Assembly: GCA_977016875.1 (NCBI GenBank)
Contig: CDRNST010000088.1
Coordinates: 2,604,001 to 2,668,000 of the forward strand
From: Pavona decussata
Taxonomy: Eukaryota
Direction: 5' to 3'
Length of the DNA stretch: 64,000 bases
Part shown: positions 21,592 through 57,125 of the stretch, piece after piece
Numbering within the stretch: position 1 is the stretch's first letter
How the letters are laid out: the number at the start of each line of letters is the position of its first letter
Translations under genes and position numbers: made by a program
Notes under the pieces: model-generated
The model's database searches: none
The model's input: the letters and a program-made list of their open reading frames with translations, nothing else
What the model was told of the DNA's origin: nothing

Positions 21592-21777
21592 GGGCCTGTT
21601 TACAAGGAGAGAGGGTTACCCTAGCAAGCAGGTTACCCTAGCACTAACACATTTCCTCTTTTTTTTTTTTTTCAGGGTTACCTGTGAAATTTTGCTTGTA
21701 AACCCGGGCTATCTTTTACCCTCCTGCTACAGTTAACCTGCTTGCGAGGGTAACCCTCCCTCCTTGTAAACAGGCCC
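21592..21777. mobile_element. PIF/Harbinger (Tourist-like) MITE
   Basis: About 43-bp TIRs gggcctgtttacaaggagagagggttaccct.gcaagcaggtt, flanked by TAA and TTA. Confidence 0.85.
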
Positions 21778-32782: not shown

Positions 32783-33238
32783 TGTTACGAGGTTCACACC
32801 TCCATTTATAAACAGTTGTTTTATTAAAGTCACGCGTATTTATGTCACACGCGTTCCTATTATGTAATTTTTGCTAATGCCCATATATAGGCATGTAGGC
32901 AGCACGTGTTCAGGGATAAATATAGAACAGCCCTGGGAATATGTAGTTCTGAAAGAGAAAAGACTTTTGCTACTTTCGTGTTGGATTTTCCTTCACTCTG
33001 CTTTCTCCATTGGATGTTCCCTCCATTGGATGTTCCTCGACCTAAAGACTATATGGACACTTAAACTAGGCAGATAAGCATTCGAACATTTATATATTTG
33101 ATTGTACTGACTTATAGTTTATGTTAAGCGCACGTTGTGTTATATTAAATAAAGTATGTGTTCTTGTTCACGAATGTCGTCTGATTTACCGTTTGTTGCA
33201 GACGTTCACTTTGTCGCTTTACAATTACGTCTGTAACA
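32783..33238 (+). repeat. 5' LTR (456 bp)
   Basis: tgttacgagg...ctgtaaca. Contains a 16-bp tandem duplication (ctccattggatgttcc) absent from the 3' LTR. Confidence 0.95.
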
Positions 33239-36149: not shown

Positions 36150-38891
36150 TGGAGACTTTTGAGCCATTCATTCATGATGGTTTTTTCATTGACAAGTGAT
36201 TTGTCTAGTGTTTCCCCTATTAGAATTTTGAGGGATACTGGGGCCTCACAATCCCTTTTACTGGCAGATACTTTTCCATTTTCTGAACAGTCGTCTGCTG
36301 GTGCTAATGTCCTTATTAAGGGGGTAGATTCATCAGATTATACATCTGTTCCTCTTCATAATGTTTATTTGTCATCAAACATAGTTTCAGGACTTGTTAC
36401 CCTTGGCATTAGATCTTCTTTACCCTTTGAGGGAGTACACCTTCTTCTTGGCAATGACCTTGCAGGGGATAAAGTAGCTGTTAGCCCTGTTATCTATGAT
36501 AAGCCTTGTTTTGATCAGGTTCCTGATCCTATAGAAAGTGAGTATCCGGGATTATACTCGGCATGTGCCGTTACTTGAGCCATGAGTAGGAAAGAGGCTC
36601 TTGAAGAGAATACTAGTTCTGAGGTTGACTTGTCTGAAACATTCTTCAGCCAAGCTTTTAAAGTCGATGAGGGATTCAAACCCTCTGAGGGAAGTTTATT
36701 TAAAGAAAGTCTTATTAAAGAGCAACATAAAGACCCAGAAATATCATGCCTGTTTCAAAAGGCTGTTGATGAAAGTGAAATGTCTAAAAATCCTGTTTGT
36801 TACCTTGTTGAAAATGATGTGTTGATGCGAAAGTGGAGACCACCTGACGTTCCTGCTGAAGATAAGTGGACTGTCAAGTATCAGGTTGTGATTCCCAAAG
36901 CTTACCGAGCGGAGATACTCAGCACAGCCCACAAAACACCGCTTGCTGGACATCTTGGGGTAAACAAGACCTATCAGAAAATATTGAATCATTTTTATTG
37001 GCCTAACCTGAAGAAGGATGTGGCTGAATTTTGTAGGTCTTGTCATACCTGCCAAGTTGTTGGAAAACCTAACCAAGCAATACCAAAAGCCCCACTGCAG
37101 CCAGTAGTGTTACCAAGGCGACGAGCTGGCGGACATCTCAAATCATTATTTTCGCCATGGACTTTCTTGGTGATGTTAGAGTGTTTCTCGCAATACAACT
37201 CACAAAGAATTACAGGTTTGATTGTGGATTTGTACTGAAATACTATTCTAATTGATCGATTCTTCGTATTCCGAACAGTTTTCGCAAAAGTTTTGAAAAA
37301 CGTGGTCCGCGTGAGTCGATAAATTCGCTTCAAAATTGACTTGCAATTGCTTCAAATCGCTTGCGAGTCGGTAGCCTCACGGCAAAAATTATACGCGTTT
37401 TCTTCTAAGACCTATACAAAGACTTATTTGAATAAATGTTTTATTTAGGAAAGCTTTATTGCCTGTTTTTCTTTCTATTTTCATTGATGAAACGTGATGA
37501 CTGCCTAATCTTGCGTAAACAAACACGTCTCCTCGAGAGCGGATCAAATTACTGCCATGTGACGCGAGGATCAAATTTCATCAAATTTTCGAAATTTTTA
37601 CCTTCAGCTTTGTTTTTTGGGTAATCTTTAATTCGCAGCTAGGGTATTTTATTTGACAATTAGAAATTCTAGCTATTCTAGACCAAAGGAGTGCTGTTTC
37701 TTTGACCCAGTAAGTAGTCAATTTTTACTGCACATTAGGTTAATTATTAACAATATGCTAATTTGTGAAAATGTCGAAAACACGTGGGCTGCAATGGGTT
37801 AAGGAAAAGTTCCTTTCTGATAACGTAGATTCTTTAAACCTTTTACAGTATGTTTCAGATTTCCGCACTAAGCTCACAAGGGCACGTGAATTAGCTAGAG
37901 CAAATCTAGTTTCAGCTGAGAAATCTATGAAGGCTAGGTATGATCTAGACTCAGTGGAACGTAAATTTGAGCCAGGCCAGAAGGTTCTTGCTTTACTTCC
38001 AGTCCTTGGAAGTCCACTTTAAGCTAGATTTTTTGGTCCCTATGTTGTTGAAAAGAAATTAAGTGATCTTAATTATGTATTGGTAACCCCTGACAGGCGG
38101 AAACAAAGACAACTGTGCCACATACATTCAGACATTCCAAACAGAACTGACGCGATATACCATGATGTTGATGTTGGCAATGCCAATCCAGTCAAACAAC
38201 ACCCTTATAGGCTGAATCCCACAAAACAAAAGTATCTACATGAAGAAATCCAGTACCTTTTAGAGAATGACTTCATTGAACCCAGCAAGAGCAATTGGAG
38301 TTCTCTTTGTCTCCTTGTTCCAAAACCCGATGGAACCTACAGATTCTGTACTGAGTACAGAAAAGTGAACAGTGTGACAAAGTCAGACTCTTTTCCAATT
38401 CCTCGAGTGGATGACTGTATTGATAGAATTGGAAATGCCAAGTATGTGACCAAGTTTGACTTACTGAAAGGATTTTGGCAAGTTCCTCTTACTGACCATG
38501 CTAAAGAGATATCAGCTTTTGTTACTCCTGATGGTCTGTTCCAGTACAAAGTTACCCCATTTGGAATGAAGAATTCTCCAGCCACCTTTCAGCGCCTTAT
38601 AAACAGTGTCATTCCTGGTCTTAATGGCTGTGAAGCATACATTGATGATGTCATCATTTTTAGCATCAGTGGGAGGATCATTTGAGAATCATCCGCAGTT
38701 TCTTCGAGAGACAAAGTGAGGCTATGCTCACTATTAACCTTGCAAAAAGAGAGTTTGTCTTTCTTCACAAGTTGAAGAACAAGAATCAGAGATTACTTAG
38801 GTGGAGTTTGATGTTACAGGAGCATGACTTAGACATTAGACACATCAAGGGAAAGGACAATGTTATTGCTGACTGTCTTTCCAGAGTGTGA
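36150..38891 (+). pseudogene. pol of the Gmr1-like element: protease, integrase (core deleted), RT, RNase H
   Basis: ILRDTGASQS (PR). AH..AGHLG...FYWP...CHTCQ (IN HHCC). FFGPY (GPY/F). PVKQHPYR...FDLLKGFWQ...PFGMKNSPATFQ...YIDD (RT). RWSLMLQE...HIKGKDNVIADCLSR (RH end). Confidence 0.93.
37093..37796. mobile_element. Non-autonomous element with CACTG-type short TIRs replacing the integrase core
   Basis: cactgcagcc ... ggctgcaatg. The pol frame is lost between these points and there is no matching TSD. Confidence 0.55.
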
Positions 38892-40095
38892 TGTATAAGT
38901 TAAGCCACTTAATTGTTTTATCTGGACGCTAAAAGAAAGTTGTGTTTCCAAACATGAGGAACTTAGCTAAGCGAAAGAATGCGCCCCAGGAGCTCCTCTC
39001 GAAGTGCTTAATATCTGTATCATTTTCGCCAAGGTGTACAACTGAGTGACGTTTGTGGTCAAAACGTCAATTAGCACGTACGCCTGATCAGTCGTAGTAG
39101 GGAAATTAGTAATTACAGTAGAAGCTGACGGTGGAAATAACAACCCCCGGTGTGTAATAGCTTTTCGTTTCTAATTTCCCTTACTTTGTCACCACTGGTT
39201 TTCGGCGCCCTAAATTAATTCGTGACGTTGGCCGTTTTCCTTGATATTATTTATAACTTTATTGTTGTAACCGGTTGTAAGCGCTAAGCGGACCCTTTCC
39301 GCGGAGTTTAAAGAGGAGCTTAAAAAAATTACCAAATGTAAAAGAATGTTTAATATGAAAGTGATTAAAGGGATAAACATTTTCAATATAAACATTGAGT
39401 AAATATTGATGGTCACCATTACTATACTGTGCACAAAATCCACGCGCGCCCAAAATCCATATTATCACGTAACTCGTGTTCAGACCTCCCAGACATGACA
39501 ACAAACGCCTGGTTAATCATCGCCCATTTGAACTGACATCACATCACTAGAATTGTACTATATTTTTGTGCAAAGCTGGGTGACAAAATGGAATTAATGT
39601 AAAACTTTTATAAGTTACTGCACTGGTAATCTTTTACTGGAGCGGGAATTTCAATTTGAAAAGCGAGATGTTTTTCCCGTGGGCATCAATTGACGTGGTT
39701 TCGCCATGGAGGTTGAAGTTTCTGCATCGTCGATGACTTCATGGTCGTTTTCTAAGGTTACCAGCCCTTCACTGGACTCCACTAAACACTGGTACGTTCT
39801 CACGAAGAATATTTGTGGATGCAGACTGACAGACTTCGCAAAGAACGAAGTTTTTCGCCAATTTCCAGGAAAAATTCAGCTCGTGGAAACGCGGGAACTA
39901 AAGACCGCCAACAAAGGCTGTTCGCTTAACAGGCAACCCCGAAATCTTTATGTGGCTACTTGTTTGGTCTTTGCGCTTTGTTACTGAGACAGCGAGAGTT
40001 CCCACAGAACGGATTTATTAGATCAGCAGAGTTTTCCTCCGTCCAAAACGCCATTAACTGTGTCATACTGGATTCGAAAAGTTTAGGTAGGAAAA

Positions 40096-43000
40096 ATGCA
40101 GGACATTGATACACAGCTTTTAGACTGGAAAGCTCGCTTCCATGCAGCTCATCAAGAAATGCTGCAGTTGAGGAAAACGATCTCCGAATTAGAGGAAGTA
40201 ATTGTGGAGCTTCAAAGAGATTCTAGTTCTTCTGTTGATCATTGTACCCCGGGCAGGTCTTCCCCACTGTCCTCCTGCTCCTCAGAAAGCTGCAGTTCAA
40301 GGATAGTGGAAACAAAGAGGAGTCCTCTTGGATCCATTACTAAGAGAAAGGAAGTAGCTGGTCAGTGCAGAATGGTTATTTCAGATCTAAATGATGTGTG
40401 CGACAAGTACCATGAGTCACTAGCTTGTGTTCTTAGAAACAGTTTTCTTTATGGAAATGACTCTGAAAAGGAAGATGTTTCAAAAACTGTCTCAGAAATT
40501 TTAAATCAATTAGTCGATTTTCTTGTGATTTTGGACTAATAATTAGCAACAAGAAATAGCTCAGCAAACTCAGCAAACACTATGTTACTATGTGCGGCAA
40601 TGAGAGAGCTAGTTGTTGCACCTGAGATCTTTGTCTGGGTATTCCAGTATTCATTTATTTACATGTAAACAACCAACATAATGAAAAAATCCAACCCATT
40701 CACTAAGAGAAAAATGTAAAGAAGAAAATATAATTTACCTGCTTATCAAAGCTTATTTTATTTGAAGCGTTCTTGTGATACTCCAGTGTTGCTGACGAAA
40801 AATGAAATCAGGGCAGTGAAGAAATTGGTTTTCTCTGTTGTACGAAGAACCATGAAAATTCAAAAGATGAAAACCGAATTTGATGCCTGCAGCGTTGACC
40901 TGTCTTCTGTTCTTGTTTGGGCCATACGGGAGCAGCGTCTAGTTTCTTCTGACCAGGACAGAATTGAATTCAACATTAAACTTGATGGCCGCCCACTTGG
41001 AGGTATAGTAAAAAACAACATAAATGTAGTGTTTGTCTCGTGCATTGTATAATTTTTGAAACAAAATAGTATCCATCATGAGGTCAGGTGCAGGAAAAAA
41101 AACTTTGGTACAGCTAAAATTTTGTTACAAACCACTCTGTGTGTTTGTATGGGTGTGCGCATGATGTTAGCCATGCAGTGTCAAGGTGTCTTGAATTGAG
41201 TCAACATGTTGAAGCTGCTCCATCAGTTGACCTTTCTTAACGGCATGATGATATGCTAGCTGTTATGGTATGTCCATTTCCAACAACAGGCTTTTCCAGT
41301 CCCTTGTTTTTCTTTTTGCAGGCAAGAATCAGGTCGCAGTGGGGCTTGTTCCAATCAGCTTTGAAAATAAAAGTTCAGAGAGTGCTTTGTCTGTATATCC
41401 AGTTGCTATTGCAAACTGTAAAGAAAACAGGTTAGGAGACATTTGAAATAGGAGCCAGGTGACTTTGTGAGGGTGTTAAAGATGGCTTTGATTGATAATT
41501 TACAGTATAGACAAACATTGGTATTTATACGCAAACTTTGAAATACTATTGTGTGGATTGTAAAAATATTTAACTTTGTTAGCAATAGTCATTCTTTAAC
41601 AGTCAGTGTTTTTCTCAATTCCTTTAGCTGCAATTAATTTTCAAAATAATGCTGACAAGTGAAGAACGTTAATGACAGTAACATGGCAGTTTGGAGCTTA
41701 GTTGAATTTGTTAACTGTTTGTTTTTTTTCAGACGACAGCTCACCCAGTTGATCTCAACGTTAAATGAACAAAAGCGTAAAATAAAGAAAAATGGGGTTG
41801 TTGTTGATGGGAAAAAGTATCAAATCAAGTTTACAGGTATTTGATGTTTTTGCATTATATACTGGTAAATAATACACACTATATCACTACGGGTATTATC
41901 GGAACTACTTTTAGCTTGATGGTAAAAGATAATGACATAATTAATGTCACATTTTCAAAGTTGTAGATATCTGTGAGTGAGTTGCAAGAGTTCAACAACA
42001 TTTCAACATTCCTTTTCTTGTATCAATCTTGAAGCATTTTGACAGCATTGTGGTGAGATCTCTGCCCATTGATAAAGTCACCAAGCATTACAAGCAGAGT
42101 CATGGTGCAGGAAAGCAAGTTGTCCTGGGCTATGTAACATTTTTTGAAAAGCAGAAAATGGTTGGTGAATTATTAATAATCATAAATGTTCTATTGAAAA
42201 GTAAATGGTAGGCATGCCTTTGCAATACTGACGTTAGATGATGGCTGCTATGTCCATGCAGGAAGATAGGAAAGATATTAAACAAGTAGGAAAGCCTGGA
42301 GGTTATAAATTGAATCTCTGCCAATTTTGTTTTCCCTAAAATAGCCTCATTGTTTAACAAAAAAAAAAATGATTTTATTACATGATTGCAAGGAGGCTCA
42401 AATTTTGTTCACTTGACAATTCTAAAAGTTCAGTTAGCAGAAGGTTATTATTTACAATTACTGTCTACCCACGTTTAATGTCATCATCATTATTGCTAAA
42501 TGTCATAGAATTGACTGTCCACTAAAGTTTCAAATTTTTTTTAAAATGTTATGCTTTGGAGTGATGACTGGTCCTTCAACTTTCCTTTTGATATGAATTC
42601 ATTGTCAGTGATAAAAAATAAGCCAGAAGATGTAAACAAGATCTCAAACCAAAATGGTCCAATTATTCTGAATATTACCTTGACATTTGATGAGCAGCAA
42701 TGTGAAAATGTTTCTTTTTGTAGTTTGTCACTGAAATGCTAAGTTGTGGTGAGATAACACGTGATTATGGCTCAAGACAAGAAAAAGTCAAGATTGAAAA
42801 AGGTAGCAGTAAGAAATAAGCTGAAAGGAATTATTATATTATCATAGATGTTTTTAAAAGGACAGGATTGTGTTTTGATGAACCATCATTTTTGTTCTGC
42901 TGTGGAACTAAACTGCTAGAGTTGTATTGTGACCCATGTACTGATAACAAGTATTGACTCTCATTGTGTGCTATGTCTTACAGATCTTGAAACATTTCTA

Positions 43001-46000
43001 ACCAGCCACAAAGAACAGTGGGAAAAAAGAAAATGGAAGTTGAGGCAAAGTTTTTGGAGCTGAGTAGTTTAGCAGATGAGATCTCCAACAGTGTGAAGGA
43101 GCCACACCCAAAGAAGAGAAAGAGAAGTGCAAAGGCTGCTGACTCTCAAAGACAGGAAGATCCATTTGCTAGTTACGCGGCTACACTTCAAGTTGATTTT
43201 TTTAGAAAGGTAACTAACATCAGATTACCTGGAGTTGTACAAACATTGTCCTGAAAGATCCAAAAACAGAAGGGCTTAGTTATCTCACACATAGTTTTAT
43301 GTAGTTAATATATCTCATTGATTTTATCAGTTGTTTCATGATCTTGGGGAATTTTAAGTGGAAACCAGCACTCTATAAATCTTATAACTTCAATATTATT
43401 AGTCTTAAGTAAATCTTTCACTGTGCACAGATGATGTGCACACAGTATATATACAATATGCTAGGAAGTGTACATGTATATCAGGTTGTTGCCTGTGAGT
43501 CCATTTATATTTTTGAGATTTAACTTGTTGTTTATCTTAAGGTTTGTGCAGACTGGAGAGATATTGCGATTACAATTCGGGATAGGGTATTTGAGGAAGG
43601 TGATGAGCAGCTTATTGATATACAAGATGTCAAGGTCAGCACCTGTAATATTAATTTTGATATTTACGGGTATATCCAGCTCCAGCAAACTGTTTCCATT
43701 TAATACTTTTGGTTAGCCTTGTTGTTGCTGATTTTTGTAAATTATGATGACTTTCCAGAAAAGAGAACAAACTTAGTCTACTGAAAATTTGATATAGTTA
43801 TTGTAATGCTGGTGGAGAACTAGGTAATCAAGTTTTGATCTTTTTACATGTGGTTGAAATGGTGTAGGGCCTCTTACCTGTTTAGACTGTGTATGCCCTT
43901 GAAACGTCTGCTGTACATACTGCTGGTTAGAAATCCGCTTTTTTTCTTGTAAAGCATAATGGATGTGAAGGCTGAGCACAGAATACTAGGAGTTAAATTC
44001 TTTTTTACTGTGACAAGCAACTCCAATTATTGTTGCTTAAAATCTCTCTTTAAAGTCTTAAATCTGTACTTTTGATTCCTATTTTCTGACATAAACAAGG
44101 AGTGCATTGTGTTTGAATTTCAGTGTGAAGCCTGGGGTTTCCTCTTAAAGAAACTGTTTGGCATTCACCTTGGTACTGGAGACTATGGTCATCTGGTGAT
44201 TGACCACAGTGCCATGTTGCGTTGACGCTTCCAATCATTATACAAGTATTCTGGACAAGGCTTTGAGGCATCCCACAAACTGCATCGCCAACTCTACTCC
44301 AAGGCAACAAATCATGATTTTTCTGGCCCAGGGCAATCCTGTGAGTTGTAGCAATATTTATTTCAGTTGTGGCTCTGATGTCACTTCCTTATAGGTGTAC
44401 ACTAGGCATTTTTCTGGCATTGAAGAAATCTTCCACTGAAGAATGGGCTGACTACCTATGAGAAATGATAATAGATTGTGTAACATGACTTATTGCCTTT
44501 GTTGCTGGCTTCCACTGTACCTAACGTGGAAGATAGGTAGTACTCTGTCCCCTTCATATAGGCTCCACAGACAAATACCTAGAATGATGCACATTGTTTA
44601 TCCACATATAACTCTTCATATTTGAAATGGGTTATAGTTGCATGGGATTATGGTAGTGTCAGTTATAGTCACCTAACTTATTCAAATCGGAAGTGGGTGT
44701 TCATGTAAAACATGTATGTTTTCTTTATGTGACCCCACTTGAAAGTTTGGGAAACTATTCTAAAGACTGCTTATCTTATTTCAGTGGATCAAATTCTTAC
44801 TCATTGGTTTGCGACGATGTTACTTCAATTACGATACGCCTTTCGTGAAGCCAGGGATTGCATTGCCTTAGGTTAGTACATTTACTGTTGCTAATATGAA
44901 TGTCCGGTTCTAATGATAGAAAATGATCTTAAATCGGGGTATAAATTTGGCTGTATTTCTTTGAAAGCCATTTTGAGATCACAATCATTCTGCTTTTCAT
45001 TGATTCTGCATTTTAAGATGTTGGTAAAAGAAAACCTATTTGTATGAACATCATCTTACCTCACAATTTTTAACAGGAAAGCGAAAATTCAGCTTCCGTG
45101 GCTGTGGATGGAAACCCATCAACACAAGGATGTGGATAAAAGAAAAACAGGAGTGGATCTTGGCCATTGACAACCTTTTCAGCCAAATGTTCGGCAATGA
45201 CTTTTTGACATATGCTTTTGACAAAAGCAAGGGAACAAGTGTCAAGGAGCATATTCTGTCAGGCCTTGTTGAATACAACCATGACCAATTTGGAGACACT
45301 GACATCTCCCAACAAGAAGAATTTATGGACACTGGTTTAGCAATGAGTAGTGCTGCTTCTGCCAAACAGCTGGTCTTTACAGACGTGGAGGTTGAATCTG
45401 CCTAAAGCTGCCCTTCCACTGAGGTGTCAGATGGGGATTGCATTAATGTAACCAAGACTTCACAAGAGGTACTCATCATTCATGATGGAGAAGAATGTGA
45501 GCAGAGTAGCAGTTCTTGCAATGACAGTTCACAGCAACCTTGTATAAAACCTCTGCCATATGCCTTGAACACAGCTACATGTAGTATTCAAGCTGATTCT
45601 GCCAAACAGCCTGTCTTTACAGACGTGAAGGTTGTATCTTCAAAGAGCTGCTCTTCCACTGAGGTGTCAGATGGGGATTGCATTGTAACCAAGACTTCAC
45701 AAGAAGTACTCATCATTCATGATGAAGAAGGTGAGATGAGTAGCAGTTCTTGGAATGACAGTTCACAGCAACCTTGTACCCCCTCGTCATCTGCCATGAA
45801 AACAGCTAGTACTCGAGCTGAAATAGCTGCAATTAAAGATCTGATTCCACCAGTATCACCTTCCCGTAGCTCCAGTGCCTCCTTGCCTGCCAAACAGGGA
45901 GCTAATAAGCCATTTTTTACAGACCCCTTCACCCTAATCCATCGCCCCTGTGAAGCCATTATTAAAGGAGCAGAACAATTGTTGACAGATGAGAGAACAA

Positions 46001-46878
46001 AGGGAAGCAACTCATTAGGGATTACCATTCAAGGCCTGGGTCAGTTCTCTGAAAATGGTTTATCAGTTCTTGAACGATTTTCTATAATATCTGAGATAAA
46101 ACATAGAGTAGCAGCGGAGGCTCGATGGCTTTCTCTATTAAATTGTACACCACAGGAAGTTGCACTTCTGCAAACACTCCTTTGGAACAGGCCAACCAAT
46201 TCTCCATTTTTGAGACGTGACCACAAAGCCATTGATGTCACATCGTTTTGTGACCTTGCTGAAGAAAGACACATTGATAGCTTTGTTGTTGATGTGTGCA
46301 TCAGCAAATACGTTGAAGAAGTCCGCAGACTGGGAAGAAATGATACATTGTACTTTCCTACTGAATTTTACCAGTGGATGGAAATGGATGACAGAGCTTT
46401 TAAATTTGGGCAGTTAGCAGCAAGCGCTCACCAGAGATCAAAGTTTGAAGACCTGCAGCAAATCCTGGTGCCAGTGTTCATGGGGAACCATTGGGGACTT
46501 GTCTACATTGACCTTGCAAATAAGCGTTTATGTTTCGACAAAGGGTTACGTTATGTGGTTCCCTTAACGACACTTCCTTTTATAAAAGAGGCTTTGGATT
46601 TCCTTTTTCAGTTATATCCCCATCATCCATTACTCCATACAAAGTTTTGGCACTCTTGTCAAATTTTTAGTAGGTTTGGGATGCCTTCACAAGTTCCTGT
46701 TGATTCACACATGATTGGAGTCGGTAGTTGTGGAATTGGTGTCATTATGGCTGCCAGAGACTTTATCAGAAGTGGCCCTTCAACTGTGAACAATATTCAG
46801 TGTAAGTACTGCAATATGGATCAACATAGAAAAAGCCTTAGGCTACAGATCCTCAGGTGGGCTGGACATCCTGCTTAA
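40096..46878 (+). pseudogene. Multi-exon RAG1/Transib-like DDE transposase gene fused to a C-terminal Ulp1/C48-type protease
   Basis: Mostly phase-consistent GT-AG exons: ...-41002, 41322-41430, 41733-41836, 42984-43209 (frameshifted), 44124-44340, 44785-44871, 45077-46878. They give FNIKLDGRP..., VYPVAIANCKEN..L..L...KKYQIKFT, GDYGHLVIDH...YSGQGFEASHK, LDQILTHW, then NHWGLVYID..CFD...Q...GSCGIG. Stops fall in the 44124 exon and at 45403. Confidence 0.65.
43313..43772. repeat. About 460-bp dispersed repeat, copy 1 (intronic)
   Basis: Highly similar direct copy at about 47600-48056. Confidence 0.85.
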
Positions 46879-46959
46879 GATGTCATTTGTGACTTGCCAA
46901 TTTCCTACCACTTGGGGTAGCAGAATGCCTGCAGAAACTATTTTTTTCCCATTATCTTA

Positions 46960-47291
46960 ATGCTCTCATGGGTAGCATATACCCGAGGGTAACAATCACT
47001 TTTGTTGCAACCAACCCTTGTGCTCTCATGGGTAGGATATACCCGAGGGTAATAATCACTTGAATACTAACTAATCATGTTCTCTCATGGGTAGAATGTA
47101 CCCGAGGGTAATAATCACTTGAATACTAACCAATCATGTTCTCTCATGGGTAGAATATACCCGAGGGTAACAATCTAATACTAACCAATCATGTTCTCTC
47201 ATGGGTAGAATATACCCGAGGGTAATAATCACTTGAATACTAACCACTCCTGTGCTCTCTTGGGTAGGATATACCCGAGGGTAACAGTTAA
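46960..47291. repeat. Minisatellite, ~54-59-bp unit with gggta-N5-taccc hairpin
   Basis: Six copies of (tg)ctctcatgggtagaatatacccgagggtaa, ending in acagttaa. Confidence 0.9.
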
Positions 47292-47295
47292 TTTT

Positions 47296-47412
47296 TCCCT
47301 TCCGCTGAGACTGCCACCTTGTCGTGGTGGAGGGGCTTCAGTGTCTCTATGATCCTTGTACCTACTAAGGAAGGTAAGGTCAAAGGGGAGAGTCCATACT
47401 AAGAGCAGTCTC
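47296..47412 (+). mobile_element. RTE-type 5' fragment (or RTE-derived SINE head)
   Basis: ccaccttgtcgtggtggaggggctt...tctatgat...ggtcaaaggggagagtcca resembles RTE 5' leaders and the 34514 copy. Confidence 0.6.
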
Positions 47413-47599
47413 TATCACTTTTGATATAATATACTTATGGGTGGCTTTATTTTGTAGCTGTGACAACAAATAAAATCATGTCAATCAAGATAATATTTAT
47501 TTGGTCAAATACGTACATTAAAATGTCTAAACGTTTTTGGCCTCTCACCAAACAAGTTTAGGAATTATGAAAACTAAACCCTACTAACATAAAATATTA

Positions 47600-48056
47600 G
47601 CTCATTGATGTTGTCAGTTGTTTCATGATCTTGGGGAATTTTAAGTGGAAACCATCACTCTATAAATCTTATAACTTCAATGTTATTAGTCTTAGGTAAA
47701 TCTTTCACTGTGCACAGATGATGTGCACACAGTATATATACAATATGCTAGGGAGTGTACATGTATATCAGGTTGTTGCCCTTTGAGTCCATCTATATTT
47801 TTAAGATCTAACTTGTTGTTTATCTTAAGGTTTGTGCAGGCTAGAGAGATATTGCGATTACAATTCGGGATAGAGTATTTGAGGAAGGTGATGAGCAGCT
47901 TATTGATGTACATGATGTCAAGGTCAGCACCTGTAATATTAATTTTGATCTTTACGAGTATATCTAGCACCAGCAAACTGTTTCGATTTAATACTATTGG
48001 TTAGCCTTGTTGTTGCTGATTGTTTTAATGATGAATTTTAAGAAAAGAGAACAAAC
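47600..48056. repeat. About 460-bp dispersed repeat, copy 2
   Basis: Direct copy of 43313-43772. Confidence 0.85.
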
Positions 48057-48183
48057 TGCTAAAAAAGTGCATCGGAATGTTTAAACGTTTTTGGCCTCTC
48101 ACCAAACAATTTAAGCAATTAAGACAACACAACCTTACTAACATAATCTAATATCAAGAAAAGAGAACAAACTGCTAAAAACG

Positions 48184-48408
48184 TGCGAGCCATGGGAGCC
48201 ATACAAGGCAGACGTGCGAGGCATGAACAAAGCATGCGAGGCATGAACAACCTGCAACATGAATGCTAACCATTAAGCTAACCGAGGAGCTATTTAAGCT
48301 AACCTAAGTGCTATTTAGGCTACCCAGAGTGCTTTTTAGGCTAACCAGAGTGTTTTTTAGGCTAACCTGAGTGCCTCGCACGTCTGGCTTGCTGGCTCCT
48401 GGCTCGCA
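48184..48408. mobile_element. Small fold-back/MITE-like element with internal gctaacc repeats
   Basis: tgcgagcca.ggagcca...cagacgtgcgaggca is inverted with tgcctcgcacgtctg...tggctcctggctcgca. Confidence 0.65.
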
Positions 48409-48519
48409 GATTGTCAAGACCCGAATATTCTAAACACTCAAATTACCATGGAATGATAATTTTCCAATTGTCCCTGATCTAAGTCTATAAACAAGGTCTG
48501 GAGTGGGTATACAAAACAA

Positions 48520-49043
48520 ATTTAATTAACCTGCTCTGTGTTCTTATGGGTAGAATATACCCAAGGGTACATTTAATTAACCTGCTCTGTGTTGTTATGG
48601 GTAGAATATACCCAAGGGTACATTTTAATTAACCTGCTCTGCGCTCTTATGGGTAGAATATACCCAAGGGTACATTTAATTAACCTGCTCTGTGCTCTTA
48701 TGGGTAGAATATACCCAAGAGTACATTTAATTAACCTGCTCTGTGTTCTTATGGGTAGAATATACCCAAAAGTACATTATTTTAATTAACCTGCTCTGTG
48801 CTCTTATGGGTAGAAAATACCCAAGAGTACATTTAATTAACCTACTCTGTGCTCTTATGGGTAGAATATACCCAAGGGTACATTTTAATTAACCTGCTCT
48901 GTCCTCTTATGGGTAGAATATACCCAAGGGTACATTTTAATTAACCTGCCCTGTGCTCTTATGGGTAGAATATACCCAAGAGTACATTTTAATTAACCAG
49001 CCCTGTGCTCTAATGGGTAGAATATACCAAAGAGTACAGTTAA
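48520..49043. repeat. Minisatellite, 47-48-bp unit with the same hairpin core
   Basis: About 11 copies of ttaattaacctgctctgtgctcttatgggtagaatatacccaagggtaca, ending in acagttaa. Confidence 0.92.
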
Positions 49044-49398
49044 CTTACTTACCGTTGCTAACTTACTATTAAAACGTATATGCCGAATGATGCAAGCGAA
49101 TTTTCCCTCAAATGTCAGAGGTTTCAATTTTCAATGTGATTGAAAACAAAACTCTTGATTCCTTGATAGATGTATGTTTAGGGAATTATTGGATATTTTT
49201 GACATTAGCCTTTAGTTAACTGCCCAGTTTATTGAGATAAAGTTATATTAGCTCAACCCGATTTACATTTAATCTGATCCCTAATTTCCCTAATGCAACA
49301 GTGTTGTAAAGGTTTGGCCACCAGATCACGTTTAGCTCACGAGTAGCTCGACCTTCTCCAAGCGCGACCACTAAATTACTTTGGCAGGTAATTCTGTT

Positions 49399-50597
49399 TC
49401 ATGGGCCTTGTCCGTGGGCTCTGCTCTTTGCAGCTGCAATAGCTTCTCTAGGGTCAGCTGTCAGTGTATTTGCGGAAAGTTCAAAATCACCACTCAAAAG
49501 CACTTGTTCTCTAAGGGCCAAAGTGTTCTGTTTCTCTAGTGCATCCTTGAATATCTTCATGTCAAATAAACGGTATGTAATTTTCCTTGCACAAGACTTC
49601 AGAATCGGTGGACGCCAGTGGCTCACGTTCCTTACAGCATGTGGCTGTGGATCATCTAAGTCTTTTAGTAGTTGTTGGAAAAACTTAGATGGGACCATGT
49701 TGAGTTCTAACGTCTGGCAATTTCCTATAAAAGAAGATAACTTATCAAAATTTATGTTTTGATTTTGAAAACCAGTGTTTGTAGGCCTCCACACATGAAA
49801 GGTCAGGTGCAGCAAGGTCCCAACTGTATTTTAGGCTATTTTTAATTAATTTTTATCTTTTCGGGTCAGAAATGTTGCAAAATAATATTAATCAAAGAAA
49901 TGACATATGCATGCACCTAAATGAGCTGGAAATGTAAACCATACATTTTATGGTTGCTTAAAATAATAGCTGCATCCAAAATCAAGAAAACAGTTATTTT
50001 TGTTTAGGCGTTTAATATTTGCAAAACTGGCCCAACCTCCATTAAGGGAACACTTTTCCTTGCCCCGAGGGTGCCCCCTTAATGGAGGTTCCACTGTATG
50101 AGGGGCCAATATGATAATAAGGCTAGAGTAACGCAAAGGAATTTGTTTATGCCTCTACGTATAGAACAATTAGCTATTCTGACTTGCAGCTAACCAGTTA
50201 CGTAGTTTTGCCTAGGCGAACGCGCGCGTACAAGCGACAAAACTTGTTCTTTGAATGCACATCCGCAAGTCAATTCTTTGCACTAGCTTATGGTTTGTTT
50301 CCAATATTAATTATCCCTGGGAAAGGAATTACCCGTGTACTTATTGTGAACTTACTTTTATGCCTCTGGTGGTGAATTCCATTGATCCTCTCTGTCAGAC
50401 CAACCAAACATGCCTTATATTCGGCTTGCATCGCAGACGATCGTATCGCTTGGGGGGCCATCTGCTTGATCTCTTGATTTCCTTCCATAAACACTACCTG
50501 CTCTGGGAGTTGTTTGTTTGCATGTCGTTGAGTGAAGTGCTTGGAATGTTTTCAATGTTTTACCACATTCATCGCAATGCCGATAAGCAGCAGCCAT
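49399..50597 (-). pseudogene. Spliced gene of unknown function with an N-terminal CxxC motif
   Basis: MAAAYRHCDECGK... with in-frame stops. Terminal exon-like ORF at 49399-49815. Divergent from the kinase gene. Confidence 0.4.
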
Positions 50598-51100
50598 GTT
50601 TGTATTGTATTGTATTAAAATCCAAACAGATTTATCATATGGTTCTTTTGTTCCTCAGACCAAATTTGAATTTCACAGGAAGCTAAAACAATAGCGCAGT
50701 AGGTTCAGATCATGTGAAGTTCGATGTTTGAAACAGCCGGGAATGCGAAACAACCCCCTGTTTTCGTAAAAATGAATCTTCCTTTATCTTAGACTTAATG
50801 TTTCTATGTCGAAGTAATAAAGTTTTAGCGCCCTGGAGTATTGCAATAACTGGTTTCTTTTTAATGCAATTGGCCACGTGCTATGACTGTTCTCATAAAA
50901 TGACTCTCAGCTGACGTAAATCCCGCGCACTGGCTTTTAATGATTGTTTATCTGGCCAATCAAATGTCTGGGTTTATTTTTTTGGCAACTCAGGAACACA
51001 AACATTCCTGTCAGTCACCTTTCTGGTAGTGAAACAACATTTTTCTTTCTTTACGGAGGCGTTGCCGTTCTCTCGAGTTGCCAGTTCACCGTCGAGAGTA

Positions 51101-52305
51101 ATGGAATCGAACAAAAAGTGAAAAGGGTCAGCCAAAGAACCGAACGAGGAACGATGTAAATATTATAAGAAATTAAGGAGAGAGCAGAACAAAAGGAGGC
51201 AACAGAGAAAGAAAGGAAAGGAACCACAACAGGACAAGCAAGTCCTACACCTTTGGCCCGAAATCCGCCAAATAACGAGATCGTAAACGCAAACAAAGCG
51301 TAGAAGAAGAGTAACAAAAGCGAAGGATCTTTACCTAGAGGCAAAATAATGGTTTCGGCTGCATTAAAAAACGCCATGAATGCAAGAAAGATACAAAGAT
51401 CCAAGAGGAGCTCGCAGTCGCCTGCGAAACGTGCCATGACAATGCTGATTTAAAGGAAATCCAGGCAAGCAATGTGAAACAAGATGAGGGAAGAGGAGCG
51501 ATTGGAAGGGGTACCTTTGGTGCTTGCTTTTTGGCAACATTCCGTGGAATTCCTGTTGTGGTCAAGGAACTCCAACCGAGAAGCAACACAAGCGTGGAAA
51601 AGCTTAGAAAGGAGGCGGCATACGTAAGCCCGTGTGATTCAAAGATTGGGAGACCATCAAGGCATCCCTCTTCTATTCAGTGTTATGCTGCAGCAACCCA
51701 GTGTCGGAATTGTTCTGCAGTTTCATGGGGATAGTGATGAGAGCGTCACTCTCCACAAGGCAGCAAAAGAGAAGAAAGTGACAGAAGTTAAAGTGTGGAA
51801 TGAAGTGCTGTACAAGGTAACGGATGCGTTGTAACATATTCATAATTGTGGGTTCATCCACAACGATCTCAACAGTAACAATGTGTTGCTTGAAACCAGG
51901 GAGGGTCGGCCGAGTCCAGTTATCGTAGATTTCGGGAAGAATGTGCTGAAAGAGAAAGCCAAAAATCCTGCAGCCAAACTTCCCCACATCCGTGGACTAT
52001 ATCAGAACAATTTTATTGCACCGGAACTTGTTGACGGCACTGGGAAACCTTCCGTGAGCAGTGATGTTTATTCCCTGGCGTTCATGACAAGATCACTGTA
52101 CAAACTTTTGAATTTTAATGTGAACGCTACCGTGAAGAATGCTCTTGCAACTGCTTGTGAGAGTCGTCCTTCAGTCCGCGGTTTAAAAGAATCTTTGTGT
52201 TTAAAATTGTTTGTAGCAGAACACTCACTAAGAGATTTTTACGCAGTGGTGTATGTTAGAATCATACACTTTACTTCTACTTTTTGTTGCTGTTGGATTT
52301 TGTAA
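51101..52305 (+). pseudogene. Intronless Ser/Thr or TKL-like protein kinase pseudogene
   Basis: IGRGTFG, VVVKEL, FIHNDL.SNNVLL, VIVDFG, FIAPE and SDVYSL. Stops and frameshifts near 51300, 51630 and 51832. Confidence 0.88.
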
Positions 52306-53059
52306 TGATAATTTAAAGATTCTTTTTGTATTCACAGGATTTTCAAATTCATTATGAGCGATGAAATAACTACAAAAAATAAACTAATCGAGTACGTGGT
52401 GTGTGGTATACAGACGAATATTTCTCGTTAATTAACTTGTATGCTAAAATAGGCTATTAAATGGTAATAGACTTTAAATGCGTGATTTAGTCCATGCTGT
52501 TGCCAAAGTGAAATATTTCACGCAAACCCCAAGCAACCTTTCAATACTTCGGGATGACATTTCACCCGATGCGTAAACGCTTAGGTCGGATGTCATGATT
52601 CGGTCACGTTCACTGTTTATATTTTCACTCCAACAAGTTCAGTGTACATACTACAAAATGGCCGGACTTACGGCCAAATGTAGCTTGCAAGCAGGCTCTC
52701 TTGCTTGGGTTTGGCGAAAATGTCTCAGAAACATGTTCAATCGGTCTCCCGGGACAAGAAATAGTCAGCGATCAAGGATAAATCAATCTTGTCAATCTCA
52801 GACTACCAAAAGTTCAGTGAAACCGGCAAATTATGTTCACTTAATCTCCAACATTTGAGCAAGGCAGAGCATTCAGGCAAAACTAAAAACAAGCAAATTA
52901 CGGCAGTCGTTAGCTGTTGGCTATGCGCATAAGGAAAAGCGTAAACGGGGCAAATTCGCCGCAGGAATTATTTTCTTGATCTCAAACATATTGCGTGCTC
53001 CTTGTTTCAACATGATTCAATTCAATATTCAATGTATTTATTGAGTGAACGGTGCGGTT

Positions 53060-53565
53060 TTTAAAGATTCTTTTATCAAATGACAACACCGCAGCGACAA
53101 TAGCACCTAAAGTGTATTCAATATTTTTTTCGTTTATCGCGCTTTGGAAAGTTCGCAAGTGCATAATTACAAAATACAGTTTTTTCAGTAGTTGATGTTC
53201 TATGCCAAAAGACCCCGGCGACCATCTGCGGCTATTTCTGTGGCAAAGAATTTTTGTAGGCCCAAACAAGTTGTATTAGTGCCAGCCACATGCACACGTC
53301 GCCGAAATTAAGTGACCTAACAGCGTGCATTTTTTAGACTTCCTCTTTTATCAAATCACAACAGAAACAATAGCACCCATTCAATTTTGTTTTCGTTTCT
53401 CGCGCTTTGGAAAGTTCACAAGAGAATAATAACAAAGTTTTTGAGCAGTTGATTTTCTATTAAAAAAAAAAAAAACGGCGACCATCTGCGGCTATTTTAG
53501 TGGCAGACACCGTACTAAGTGCCAGCCGCGTACACACGTCGTCGAACTTAACAGCGTGCATTTTA
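53060..53565. repeat. Diverged tandem duplication (about 260-bp period)
   Basis: tcgcgctttggaaagttc..., ggcgaccatctgcggctattt and gtgccagcc..cacgtcg each occur twice. Confidence 0.75.
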
Positions 53566-53830
53566 AGGTTAATTTATTTTCTGTTATCATTTCCCAATTA
53601 TAACCTAACTGAGAACAACTTTATTAAAGAGCAGAGCTGATTAATTACATTATTTGGTCTGGTTTCTTTTAAATGTCTGTCAACATGGTTAACATTAATA
53701 TCTTCGGACGTGCCAAACCGTGGTTTTATATTACCACCATTAATTGGCTGACGGTAGATTGAATCTACCCTCAGCCTAATTTGCGTACATTCTTTTGCTT
53801 AGCTAACTTCCTCATGCTTTCTTTTTCTTC

Positions 53831-53841: not shown

Positions 53842-54281
53842 TGTTACGAGGTTCACACCTCCATTTATAAACAGTTGTTTTATTTAAGTCACACGTATTT
53901 ATGTCACGGGCGCTCCTATTATGTAATTTTTGTTAATGCCCATATATAGGCATGTAGCCAGTACATGTTCGGGGATAAATATAGAACAGCCCTGGGAATA
54001 TGTAGTTGTAAAAGAGAAAAGACTTTTGCTACTTTCATCTTCGATTTTTCTTCGCTCTGCTCTCTCCATTGGATGTTCCTCGACCTAAAGACTATATGGA
54101 CACTTAAACCAGGCAGATAAGCATTCGAACATTTATATATTTGATTGTACTGACTTATAGTTTATGTTAAGCGCACGTTGTGTTATATTAAATAAAGTAC
54201 GTGTTCTTGTTCACGAATGTCGTCTGATTCACCGTTTGTTGCAGACGTTCGCTTTGTCGCTTTACAATTGCATCTGTAACA
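53842..54281 (+). repeat. 3' LTR (440 bp)
   Basis: Direct repeat of 32783-33238 with about 24 substitutions by manual count. Confidence 0.95.
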
Positions 54282-54582: not shown

Positions 54583-57125
54583 GGTAGATAGATAGCTTTA
54601 TTAAAAATCCATTGCAGCCCAGAGGCTGGATTACGGACTGTACAATATATAATGCTAAAATACGAGAAAGGATAAAAAAAAACATCATAAATAAATAAAT
54701 AAATAACAGTATAAGTAAAACAAACAAACAAAGAAACACAGATACTACGTCATAAAATATAAAAAATAGCTGCGGATATACGATAAAAACGTTAGAAAAT
54801 GGCCGCGTTATGTATGATAAAACTATTCTTGAATCTATTTGTTCTACAAATAGGTACATTAAAAGCACGCTTTCTCCTTAAAGCTACGGTACTAAGATTA
54901 CGTGGCGGCAAAAGGCCATGAAATTTGTGGTGGCTGTTGTCCTTAATGTTATTGAATAGTCACTCCGTCAGCCATTGCCGCCGTGGATGGAAGGTGGTAA
55001 TGTTGCACTCTTTAAGAGCCTTTTGGTAGCCTAAGTCTGGGAAAATAATTCTAAGTGCACGGCGCTGAATTTTCTCTAGCTCGTCAGAGAGATACTCAGG
55101 CAGACCTTCGTGGAAACCTTGGCAAGCATATTCAGAAACGGGCCGGATACAGGTAGTATAGAAACAAAGTAGCCGCGCAGTATCTCCTTTTGCACGCTTA
55201 AGTTGCCTTAACAGATAAAGCCTAGAGGCTCCTTTTCTGATAACATTCTCTATGTGAGCATTCCACTTTAGATTGTTTGAAATTGTGAGACCAAGAAGTT
55301 TTACGCTAGTTACAACCTCTATTGATTTGTTGTTAATAGTAACTGCTTGAAAGGGATCTACAGACTTTGAGAAACTTATCTGCAACTCTTTACACTTGTT
55401 CTCATTTAATTGGAACTGATCTATTTCGGCTTGCCTAACTAGGTCGTCTACAGCAGCTTGTATTCCACTTGGTTGGCCCTTTTGGACTGTCTCGGCCACC
55501 GATGTATCATCAACGTACTTTCAAAGATTGACGCCATTGACATTGATGTCGTTTATCATGACCAGGAAGACCCAGGGCCCCAGTTTGGTCCCCTGCAGTA
55601 CACCAGCCCTGACAGGACCCCAATCCGAGTAGCAATCGCGGGCGAGTTTCACTTGTTGCTTCCTGTCAGAAAGAAAATCTGCAATCCAGTCCAGCACCCA
55701 AGGTGGGAGCTCATAATCCGTAAACTTAGCCATGAGAATGGTGTGGTCGATAAGATCGAAAGCTTTCCTAAAGTCGAAGAGCACCACGCGCACTTTCGAA
55801 CCGTTGCTGACAGTATCCTTATACCAGTTGTGGAGCATGCTGATTAGGGCATGTACAGTGCTGGAGTTCGGGACAGTCCCGTATTGGTTCAGGTCAATCT
55901 TTGCAAGGATGGCAGGCCTGATGTAGCCGTCAACAACAAACTCTTCCCCAACTTTAGAAAGAATTGGGGTCAAAGAAATGGGTCTCAGGTGTTTGTTCAC
56001 ATCGCTAACAGGTGAAGTCTTCAGGAGGGGTGTAATGTCCGCCTTCTTCCACAAAGTTGGAAGGCGACACTCCAAAAAGGAAGAATTCAAGATGTCTGCC
56101 ACTGGTGCAGCCAATAAGTCAGCGTTTTCTTTTAATACCCACGAGGGGATTCCATCAGGTCCGCATGCTTTGTTCGTATTAAGCCCCAATAGTTTCTTAA
56201 AAACTGAAAACTCAGATATAGAACAGAGAGGATCTTGTTGGCATGTATACGTGTGCGCGTGTGCGTCAGGTGTGGCTAGAGGAGTGAAGGCGGTCATTGG
56301 TGACAAAAAAGCGTCGTTAATAACATTGGCCAAATGTTTAGGATCTTCCCCTTCATCGGCAAGATGTTGAAGGTCTGCGATGGGGCTTGCGCGCTCGACA
56401 TTAGGAAAACCACTTAGCTGTTTGATTTCCTTCCACCACTGGGCAGGTTTACAAGCCTTAAGATCTTTGACTCGGGCATCATAGTACTTTGCTCAACACG
56501 CTTTCAGATCTCTGTTCACTTTATTCCGGAGCTGGTTGTACTCAACCAGATTGTTGTTGGCCAATGCCTTTTGCCGGCGGGGAATAAGGCATTTAATAGA
56601 GTTATTCATCCAAGGCACCTCGTTCGCTGATATCGATTTTACTTTTAGGGGCATGATTGCGTCCATTCCGGAAATGATAGCTTCTTCCATCAACTGTGCT
56701 TTCTCATCACGTGTATCTTTGTTTTTTACAAGGTCGGCGATGTTGACTTTTTCCAAGTATGAACTCAGAGCGAACCTGTAACTTTCTCGCTGGTCTCTTG
56801 TAATGATAGATCGTTTTGATGGTTGTGATTTACAGCGAGACAAGAGCTGGAGTTCAACAGATGCGTGATCTGACAGACCAAACGCTGGCCGTTTTATTGG
56901 CTCCTCGTAATTTTTCTTTGATGTTGGTCAAAACGAGATCTAGAGTCTGATCTCCTCGAGTATGGAACTTGACAATTTGTTTCAGCTTAAAAGCGTTCCT
57001 AAAACTCAAAGTATCGAGCCTGTTAAAACCCCCCATGATCAAAACTCCACAGTTTGAAAACCGCGATTCAATTGAAGACATTGAGTCGTGGAGATAGAGA
57101 AAGATCTCAGAGTCAGTCATTGGCA
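54583..57125 (-). mobile_element. CR1-group LINE, 5'-truncated (endonuclease end and RT), degenerate
   Basis: MGGFN...TRGDQTLDLVLTN (APE end), KACGPDGIP, LRPISLT, FDFRKAFD, GVLQGTKLGP, KYVDDT and RTNRFKNSF. Ends in aataaa plus a (tatc)n tail. Confidence 0.92.

Follow-up and report, generated by a model that had tools for sequence, protein, structure and literature searches.

Target locus and true ends of the insert

The window, i.e. the whole stretch of 64,000 nucleotides analysed here, contains a Gypsy retrotransposon in which a foreign DNA fragment separates the last coding stop (TGA, 38889–38891) from the PPT. A domain search revealed the order SCAN, integrase and RT characteristic of Gmr1-type elements, and the two LTRs are identical in 418 of 442 aligned columns. 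An insertion of about 15 kb at this position had already been recognised in a preliminary description of the sequence. Its cargo was found as described there, namely RAG1-like exons, a Ulp1-like protease, a kinase and a gene of unknown function (Table 1).

Table 1. Features of the Gypsy element and of its insert (positions refer to the window).
Feature	Position	Strand	Evidence and remarks
Host Gmr1-type Gypsy element	32783–54281	+	LTRs 32783–33238 and 53842–54281; TSD ATGT
Gypsy 3' UTR (host sequence)	38892–38952	+	other genomic Gypsy copies
Whole insert, 14,864 bp: defective copy of a CATG-ended TIR transposon with predicted RAG1 fold	38953–53816	+	TIRs, empty Gypsy paralogs, contig joints
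Left TIR, starts CATGAGG	38953–38981	+	identity with right TIR
Transposase N-terminal exon, without known domain	39706–40540	+	tblastn with homolog P0004, reading frames; stop and frameshift
Transposase exons 40775–41004 (first catalytic Asp, IKLDGRP), 41324–41431, 41731–41838	40775–41838	+	approximate limits
Insertion-domain and C-terminal catalytic exons	42026–44873	+	tblastn with P0015, P0016, P0022; approximate limits
Exons therein	42026–42166, 42724–42807, 42980–43210, 43542–43634	+	splice-type flanks by eye
Exon with H-x4-H and catalytic Glu	44122–44338	+	in-frame stop; approximate limits
Exon	44790–44873	+	approximate limits
Last exon: transposase C-terminal tail, linker, Ulp1/C48 protease	45076–46878	+	stop 45403–45405
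Tandem arrays 46961–47310 (~59-bp unit), 48520–49052 (~52-bp unit)	46961–49052	.	
Two-exon gene: C2H2 zinc finger and conserved ~160-aa domain, function unknown; broken here	49251–50654	-	homologs in relatives
Single-exon protein kinase, broken (stops, frameshift, HNDLK to HNDLN)	51156–52200	+	Pfam Pkinase, alignment, homologs
Subterminal hairpin	53746–53776	.	13/14 stem pairs; 40 bases inside right end
Right TIR	53788–53816	-	partner of left TIR

The insert is bounded by terminal inverted repeats (TIRs) of 29 bp, CATG...CATG, which are identical at 27 of 29 positions. The second-best match to this TIR inside the window reaches 20/29, and at two or fewer mismatches the TIR pattern occurs at two places genome-wide, both of them ends of the insert. 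These limits are confirmed by Gypsy paralogs without insert, which represent empty sites. In addition, contigs of the runs X2, X5 and X6 skip the insert by joining 38952 to 53817, with 14,864 bases absent and ends CA..TG.

The ends proposed previously, 38900 and 53781, are therefore incorrect on both sides, the true ones being 38953 and 53816. Residues 38900–38952 form part of the Gypsy 3' UTR in 4 of 4 other copies. The genome search with the first 300 bp yielded four further matches, all uninterrupted Gypsy copies covering only the first 53–54 bases; in three of these four, the stretch leads directly to the PPT and the fourth has a deletion into the LTR. As other Gypsy copies carry the left stretch, the left repeat arm belongs to the Gypsy 3' UTR, and the predicted empty site gtataagt/ttgcgtac does not exist, because uninterrupted copies keep those bases as 3' UTR. 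Gmr1 copies owning the left-end sequence in this way is the very observation that the preliminary description had named as speaking against its proposal. A genome search with the right-end 222 bases proposed there matched the window alone. The reported 11/13 inverted match exists (38901–38913 versus 53739–53751) but is not a repeat of the element: the 13-mer from 38900 has 15 opposite-strand matches of at least 10/13 within the window, which identifies it as a chance match. Similarly, the T/T junction had been misplaced, since the real junction lies elsewhere and reads AAA/CTT in the window. The reported hairpin is present in the sequence but does not form the tip of the element. A hairpin near the right end is also predicted in several relatives (folding of the terminal 130 bases as DNA in six family members, and alignment of ends).

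These results bear on the former assignment of the insert to a non-autonomous Helentron or HINE that had either captured its cargo or been invaded by it. The insert indeed resembles Helentron, HINE and Helitron2 elements as described (PMC4067079) in its subterminal hairpin at the 3' end, its tandem repeats, the cysteine protease among its cargo and the lack of a target site duplication (TSD). However, the left arm lies in the Gypsy UTR, the hairpin is located within the true end, and 29-bp terminal repeats are found instead of a 12–15-bp subterminal repeat near the 5' end. Furthermore, the flanks of 27 paired copies showed mixed bases at -1 and +1 and no TT preference, and the junction differs from the one assumed. 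In accordance with the preliminary description, a Pfam scan that covered 58 of the 60 open reading frames with 100 aa or more in four complete relatives, 33 of the 77 open reading frames of the window and part of the short exons detected no Rep or helicase family. A Helentron or HINE origin is refuted by the empty Gypsy copies. Neither captured nor nested cargo describes the locus; the RAG1-like gene represents the element's own transposase.

Transposase with predicted RAG1 fold and probable terminal protease

The three exons which should follow position 41838 and which encode the second Asp (TLDYK), the CxxC motif and a His are absent from the window copy; they were found in the stretches of 8 of 14 relatives. 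Judged from its sequence, the window copy is defective, as the exon with the second catalytic Asp is missing. Structural comparison was performed with P0022, a homolog gene model which is 32–59% identical to the window exons and 14–17% identical to RAG1. Superposition of its AlphaFold model (pLDDT 74.8) with RAG1 revealed a Z value of 16.4 and an rmsd of 4.7 over 390 residues, followed by Transib (Z 15.0), ProtoRAG (14.9) and then the P element (10.0). Residues D84, D163, CxxC191-194, H248, H508/H513 and E533 are present. For P0022, sequence search in the PDB gave RAG1 at no better than E=0.36, while P0009 gave no match and the ragged profile A1 no relevant match. P0022 has no Pfam family and belongs to unnamed Atlas clusters, and its structure neighbours in the Atlas include Transposase_21 clusters with TM 0.50–0.56. 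On the basis of this model, the transposase is predicted to adopt a RAG1/Transib fold.

Compared with Transib, RAGL (ProtoRAG) and RAG1, the family shares the predicted RNase H and insertion-domain fold (Z about 15–16.4), the D-D-E residues, the CxxC and H-x4-H zinc ligands and TIRs starting with CA. In contrast, the ends read CATG and do not resemble CAC or an RSS-like heptamer, and the 5-bp TSD reported for these systems (PMC1131882, PMC7204232) is missing. The genes are multi-exonic with a Ulp1 tail and are accompanied by kinase and zinc-finger genes in elements of 15–25 kb rather than 3–4 kb. Identity to RAG1 is 14–17% for the homolog of the insert family as opposed to about 30% reported for RAG1L_NV. 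With regard to the convergent RAG2-like gene of RAGL/ProtoRAG, the convergent gene of the present family encodes a C2H2 finger and a domain of unknown function, and no kelch, PHD or RAG2 family match was obtained for it.

The transposase likely carries a fused Ulp1 protease, as suggested by open frames and by the predicted proteins P0024, P0025, P0027, P0029 and P0030. Alignment revealed that the catalytic His-Asp-Cys residues and the Gln of Ulp1 are retained in the window copy. Its Pfam C48 match (E=0.002) fell short of the cut-off, which was passed by the relative C327; in C64, C142 and C475, the Ulp1 exon consists of a single open frame of 529–589 aa. Comparison of the Ulp1 sequence with that of C104 gave dN 0.25 and dS 1.41, i.e. 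purifying selection. For one transposase exon compared with C104, dN (0.25) and dS (0.21) were about equal, which is probably caused by a frameshift in the comparison.

Accessory genes and family organisation

The tandem arrays are located directly downstream of Ulp1 in relatives as well, and in the window a segment from 43307 to 43773 is duplicated at 47593–48057. The gene on the minus strand matched Pfam zf-C2H2_6 with E=7e-4; Pfam and PDB sequence searches otherwise gave no match, and the gene is absent from the Atlas. Its low-confidence model (pLDDT 58, 9 sequences) shows a small alpha/beta domain without clear fold match (best Z 5.2, no Foldseek match with E<=0.001). The kinase is open and contains its catalytic motifs in C64 and C475, and its dS is saturated. 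Kinase homologs in coral genomes are annotated as host genes, e.g. as 'aurora kinase-like'.

The insert belongs to a family of 15–25-kb elements with a fixed layout, in which a spliced DDE transposase with terminal Ulp1 exon is accompanied by tandem arrays, by a zinc-finger gene on the opposite strand and by a kinase. Six members are bounded by TIRs and span 14.9–25.3 kb. Among 14 loci with a Ulp1 match, DDE exons were found upstream at 11, the kinase downstream at nine and the minus-strand gene at nine. Homology between copies falls off at CATG (C64/C287, C45/C43/C327 and C67/C142); one end only was defined for C43 and C287, and none for C104, C157, C273, C282, C352 and C486. The earlier suggestion that a module of DDE recombinase, protease and kinase is mobile was confirmed, as numerous loci carry this combination between CATG TIRs. 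A non-coding, non-autonomous family of 2.15 kb resembles the window element at both ends (0 of 1000 shuffles reached the score, CATG excluded) and has tandem units in common with C64. Reading by eye revealed CATG at both ends in 23 of 27 paired copies; ends are intact in most copies, and a few show altered first bases (L078, L084, L091 and L157).

Public gene sets of anthozoans frequently contain homologs. This is consistent with the lineage being catalogued already, e.g. as a coral family in Repbase that is unclassified or labelled Transib, Chapaev or EnSpm, perhaps with its lack of a TSD noted. Such an entry would be compatible with the mechanism proposed below. We consider this rather unlikely, as no paper in the literature searched by title and beginning of the abstract describes the family (Repbase Reports lay outside this scope), and P0022 has neither a Pfam family nor a named Atlas cluster. 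Moreover, a 2025 survey based on Repbase gives TSDs of 2–5 bp for all lineages of the CMCT clade (PMC12730594).

Loss of target bases upon insertion

According to textbooks, DDE transposases leave target site duplications as their footprint, and superfamilies are defined by means of them. Among 43 distinct paired copies, none showed a TSD of at least 4 bp; flank matches of 1, 2 and 3 bp were found in 15, 4 and 2 copies, respectively. For the majority of paired copies, the loci compared contained no empty paralog, and a flank search for C148 gave no paralog. Outside the window, comparison with empty sites, which are paralogs and not true pre-insertion alleles, revealed that host bases were lost at all eight insertions for which a paralogous empty site exists. 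The 2.15-kb family lost 2, 2, 2, 2 and 3 bp, i.e. GT at L063 and L066, AT at L077 (tandem neighbours) and L067 (seven paralogs), and TTC at L071 (one paralog, 87–93% identity). Larger members lost 1 bp each, i.e. C at C327 (two paralogs) and C102, and T at C75 (seven paralogs). In the same flank alignments, covering seven of the eight sites, background losses amount to 3 in 2,002 bases. CATG was considered as a 4-bp duplicated target and rejected, as the empty-site junctions contain no CATG.

For the window insertion, one A is missing in comparison with 3 of 3 Gypsy paralogs and the X5 contig. The X2 contig joins the window flanks with nothing between them, and the A/C run at the junction is polymorphic. 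The alignments are therefore ambiguous, and the window copy appears to have lost 1 bp, possibly none. As the C lost at C327 and C102 equals the first base of the TIR, insertion at these two sites could be interpreted as precise, which does not hold for C75 (T) and the 2-bp cases. The loss differs in length between families and has no single fixed value.

Precise integration by a DDE transposase has a precedent in Spy of the PHIS group, which inserts at AAA/TTT 'without deletion and duplication' (PMC4122938). Spy resembles the present family as a TIR transposon of the DDE type without TSD, but differs by its AAA/TTT site, by the absence of the 1–3-bp loss and by an enzyme of the IS5 rather than the RAG1 type. 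A RAG1-fold transposon might integrate by blunt strand transfer, as proposed for Spy, or by capture of the excised element at breaks, with host end-joining removing 1–3 target bases. Variation of the loss between 1, 2 and 3 bp and the possibly lossless window site agree with such nibbling. From end-joining, a broad spread of losses is expected. Yet no precise site was found among the eight outside the window, the loss follows the family, all four 2-bp cores are purine-T, and most copies have intact ends. Nibbling is thus an improbable explanation.

Still less probable is a positive stagger of 1–2 bp, in which a 5' overhang of the element (C or CA) closes the gap and, at both ends, replaces the duplication that would otherwise arise. 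It predicts the same final sequence, CMCT relatives have 2-bp TSDs (PMC12730594), and the altered first bases mentioned above would fit. Nevertheless, it requires ligation of mismatched ends and element-biased repair at both ends, and many copies should retain target bases at one end, which contrasts with the predominance of copies with CATG at both ends.

Proposed mechanism and implications

From these data, we infer a cut-and-paste lineage with negative target stagger: probably, a CATG-TIR family of 15–25 kb with a RAG1-fold transposase loses 1–3 host bases upon insertion by this route. By analogy with RAG and Transib, the transposase would bind the TIRs, cut at the CATG ends and move the element by cut-and-paste. 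The two 3'-OH ends would attack the target strands at an offset of -1 or -2, which would create 3' host flaps of 1–2 nt instead of 5' gaps. Trimming of these flaps and ligation by host repair would leave the element ends whole and remove the central host bases. The offset may be family-specific, namely -2 at an RY core for the 2.15-kb family and -1 for larger members. Protease, kinase and zinc-finger protein may be long-held accessory genes with a putative role in tuning SUMO silencing by the host, signalling or repair. The window copy, which is unable to make a working enzyme, may have been moved in trans or may have decayed after insertion.

The CMCT clade comprises EnSpm/CACTA, Mirage, Chapaev, Transib, Plavaka, ESTA as well as Lanisha (PMC12730594). 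The insert family shares with it CA..TG termini (CATG...CATG in the window and in relatives), and the C(2)C and H(3-4)H motifs and RAG1-like fold in P0022, the window copy lacking the exons for the second Asp and C2C. The lack of a TSD and the loss of host bases distinguish the family from the clade as described, with TSDs of 2–5 bp (PMC12730594). We give about even chances to the wider proposal that it represents an undescribed superfamily of large transposons with RAG1 fold, widespread among corals and sea anemones, characterised by a fixed 1- or 2-base deletion and its own Ulp1 fusion, kinase and zinc-finger partner, and the first eukaryotic DDE lineage with negative stagger.

A paper from 2014 presented Spy as the only eukaryotic cut-and-paste group without TSD (PMC4122938). 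If true, a close structural relative of RAG1 and Transib with base-removing insertion would widen the span of target staggers to values below zero and would offer a natural comparison for target bending and attack by RAG-type enzymes. It would further account for the failure of TSD-dependent pipelines to find such elements and for the annotation of their kinases and proteases as host genes in coral genomes.

Ends of the insertion and its Gypsy host

The insertion lies in a Gmr1-type Gypsy element with the domain order SCAN, integrase and RT, and related copies were sought in the whole assembly (602 Mb, animal); named homologs came from corals and sea anemones. The preliminary description had located the insertion and its cargo correctly, but had placed its ends at 38900 and 53781 and assigned it to the Helentron or HINE type, neither of which held. 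A query with 38900-39200 matched, besides the window, four other places, each over its first 53-54 bases only. All four are Gypsy copies, of which three continue straight into the polypurine tract and the fourth into a deleted LTR start; therefore, 38900-38952 is Gypsy 3' UTR. The 13-bp inverted repeat proposed as the border is present at 11/13, but one of its arms is host DNA, and in the window the 13-mer can be placed 15 times at a match of at least 10/13; the hairpin proposed with it is real. The true ends are terminal inverted repeats (TIRs), and their pattern occurs at these two places only in the whole assembly.

Contigs from three of four sequencing runs (X2, X5 and X6) contain the joint 38952-53817, skipping 14,864 bases with CA..TG ends; X2, possibly the assembly's own sample, was not counted as independent. 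Parts of the element were found at about 95% identity in X5, X6 and X7. In two X7 contigs the match ends at 38951 and 53816 and is followed by 348 and 923 unmatched bases, which we read as other insertion sites.

Features of the element, its host and the surrounding window
Feature	Position	Strand	Details
Tandem array	3956-6800		long; 60/61-bp units, higher-order variants
Frames for a SWIM zinc finger and for a SAP domain	8159-8893; 23840-24376		probably derived from other DNA transposons
DDE_Tnp_4 and HTH_Tnp_4 frames	18327-19547	-	stop between; PIF/Harbinger- or ISL2EU-type transposase
MITE-like sequence	21589-21780		inverted arms 47 bp, 96% complementary, spacing 98 bases
Gmr1-type Gypsy LTRs	32783-33238; 53842-54281		TSD ATGT; identity 418/442 aligned columns
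Short nested high-copy repeats	~37104-37700 (Gypsy); ~40505-40575, ~48184-48408 (element)		very high contig depth
40-bp inverted pair	48184/48408		within a nested short high-copy repeat
TIRs, 29 bp	38953-38981; 53788-53816		identity 27/29; starts CATG
Hairpin	53746-53776
Non-LTR reverse transcriptase	54960-56927	-	ALKBH8_N-type C-terminal piece; a short way to the right of the Gypsy

The element family

With the Ulp1 region as query, 52 matches were obtained from 60 scored candidates, and 14 of these, picked for high scores or open frames, were examined further. Upstream DDE exons were found in 11 and the downstream kinase in nine of the 14, in the same order and orientation, and the opposite-strand gene likewise in nine. 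Pairwise homology between copies falls off at CATG, and both TIRs were identified in six members including that of the window (14.9, 15.9, 16.4, 18.0, 20.9 and 25.3 kb). Searches with the TIR pattern gave a further 23 and 43 ends, against 0 and 2 in reversed controls. A 2.15-kb family without coding capacity, with at least 79 matches in the 40 candidates that were scored out of 108, has both end structures in common with the window element, neither score being reached in 1000 shuffles with CATG excluded, and tandem units in common with C64, a relative's stretch.

Among the loci L096 and L103 (C78), L101 and L105, there are right ends that recur 9 kb apart with identical orientation and flank, as well as two ends that start with GATG and resemble each other in their flanks; these cases are possibly segmental duplications or one-ended events. 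A related Ulp1 domain (G000:C352:63618-64448, L062) lies in an open frame of 1,684 aa; the 10 kb examined there gave no match to DDE exons, and the domain may belong to another element type.

Transposase and cargo

Homologs mapped at least 11 transposase exons onto the window, the last of which starts with the conserved transposase tail FRGCGW and ends with an Ulp1-like domain. A transposase-Ulp1 fusion is likely, because this exon is a single open frame of 529-589 aa in relatives C64, C142 and C475 and the predicted proteins P0024, P0025, P0027, P0029 and P0030 join the region of the catalytic Glu to a protease-like C-terminus. The predicted protein P0022 covers the core (D84, D163, CxxC 191-194, H248, H508-x4-H513 and E533). 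Its AlphaFold model (pLDDT 74.8; alignment of 66 rows) matched RAG1 with a Foldseek E=2e-7 and a VIA Z of 16.4 (rmsd 4.7, 390 residues), followed by Transib (15.0), ProtoRAG (14.9) and then the P element (10.0). Its Atlas neighbours were unnamed clusters from Cnidaria, Arthropoda, Rotifera and Mucoromycota, along with RAG1 in the comparison of features and CACTA Transposase_21 in that of structures. When cluster representatives were searched without a profile, the homolog P0009 yielded 736 relatives at E<=0.001.

The window copy is without the exons for the second Asp, the CxxC and the first His, which are present in eight of 14 relatives' stretches, and its transposase, its kinase and its minus-strand gene are interrupted by stops or frameshifts. 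The kinase motifs GxGxFG, HNDLK, DFG and APE are conserved in C64, C142 and C475; in the protease, the residues His, Asp, Gln and Cys are conserved. Between the window and the relative C104, Ulp1 showed dN 0.25 and dS 1.41 and the kinase dS was saturated; these substitution rates therefore indicate that the cargo had been under selection for a long time and was not recently captured. In one transposase exon dN was near dS in the same comparison, probably a frameshift artefact. Any role assigned to the protease, the kinase or the zinc-finger gene is speculative. Four complete relatives contain 60 ORFs of 100 aa or more, two of which lie mostly outside the TIRs and were dropped; no Rep, helicase or RAG2 family was hit in the other 58, nor in the 33 scanned of 77 window ORFs. 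Related transposases (P0020, P0023, P0024 and P0025) are predicted to have other domains attached (deaminase, Fic, and an Ulp1 of a different, SENP-like kind), which suggests that cargo has turned over in the lineage.

Target footprint and proposed mechanism

Both ends of the small family were found in 27 of 30 loci, and a duplication of at least 4 bp in none of the 27. Among 43 distinct paired copies, flank matches of 1, 2, 3 and 4-10 bp occurred in 15, 4, 2 and 0, which by our own estimate is near the expectation from base composition. CATG itself was rejected as a duplicated target because it is absent from empty sites.

Empty paralogs were obtained for eight insertions outside the window, and in all eight cases host bases absent from the occupied site are found at the junction of the empty one; for L067 and C75, one paralog each had to be read by eye because it was not matched automatically. 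The small family lost GT, GT, AT, AT and TTC; for one AT, four of five neighbouring tandem units have AT and one AA, the other is documented by seven paralogs, and TTC by a single 87-93% paralog. Larger members lost C (two paralogs), C (a 97-99% paralog) and T (seven paralogs), both Cs being identical to the first base of the TIR. In the flanks of seven of the eight sites, events of the same kind numbered 3 in 2,002 aligned bases. At the window site one A is lost relative to three Gypsy copies and an X5 contig; the loss is 1 or 0 bases, because an X2 contig joins without a letter between.

Four 2.15-kb copies (L157, L158, L078 and L084) end in bases other than CATG (ACTG, GATG, CAGG) and may record alternative repair outcomes; two of these copies have flanks in common. 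The insertions L063, L066 and C102 sit in other family members (L048, L046 of C142), the source of their empty sites; a self-insertion preference is possible, or simply a sampling effect.

It is established for DDE enzymes that, when the stagger is positive, 5' gaps arise whose filling produces a target site duplication (TSD), and that zero stagger gives precise insertion. The latter was proposed for Spy (PMC4122938). If the stagger were negative, the element ends would stay whole and be flanked by short 3' flaps of host DNA, and trimming of these flaps would remove the central target bases. We consider strand transfer with such a stagger the probable explanation of the target-base loss; intact CATG ends, a family-specific loss and a purine-T core at all four sites that lost 2 bp are consistent with it. 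For the same lost bases, blunt insertion followed by nibbling of the ends appears unlikely, and a short gap overwritten by an element overhang very improbable.

Relation to known transposons

The element resembles the CMCT clade (EnSpm/CACTA, Mirage, Chapaev, Transib and kin) as a TIR transposon that has CA..TG termini together with the motifs C(2)C and H(3-4)H. However, 2-5-bp TSDs are described there (excerpt of PMC12730594), whereas this family has no TSD and loses host bases. For Transib and RAGL elements, TSDs of 5 bp and ends resembling RSSs are described (excerpts of PMC1131882, PMC7204232 and PMC9435367). Helentron features and TSD ranges were taken from excerpts of PMC4067079 and PMC10045372, respectively, and a term search of PMC6431247 found no mention of RAG1, Transib, Ulp1 or kinase. 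In the full-text literature, with Repbase and most subscription journals outside, we found neither a description of the family nor a target-site deletion by a DDE transposase. Lanisha, named in excerpts of PMC8245031 and a preprint, was compared by name only and may bear on novelty.

We file the element as a CMCT/RAG1-fold TIR transposon that lacks the TSD of every named member checked. That it represents an undescribed superfamily with negative stagger is a reading to which we give about even weight.
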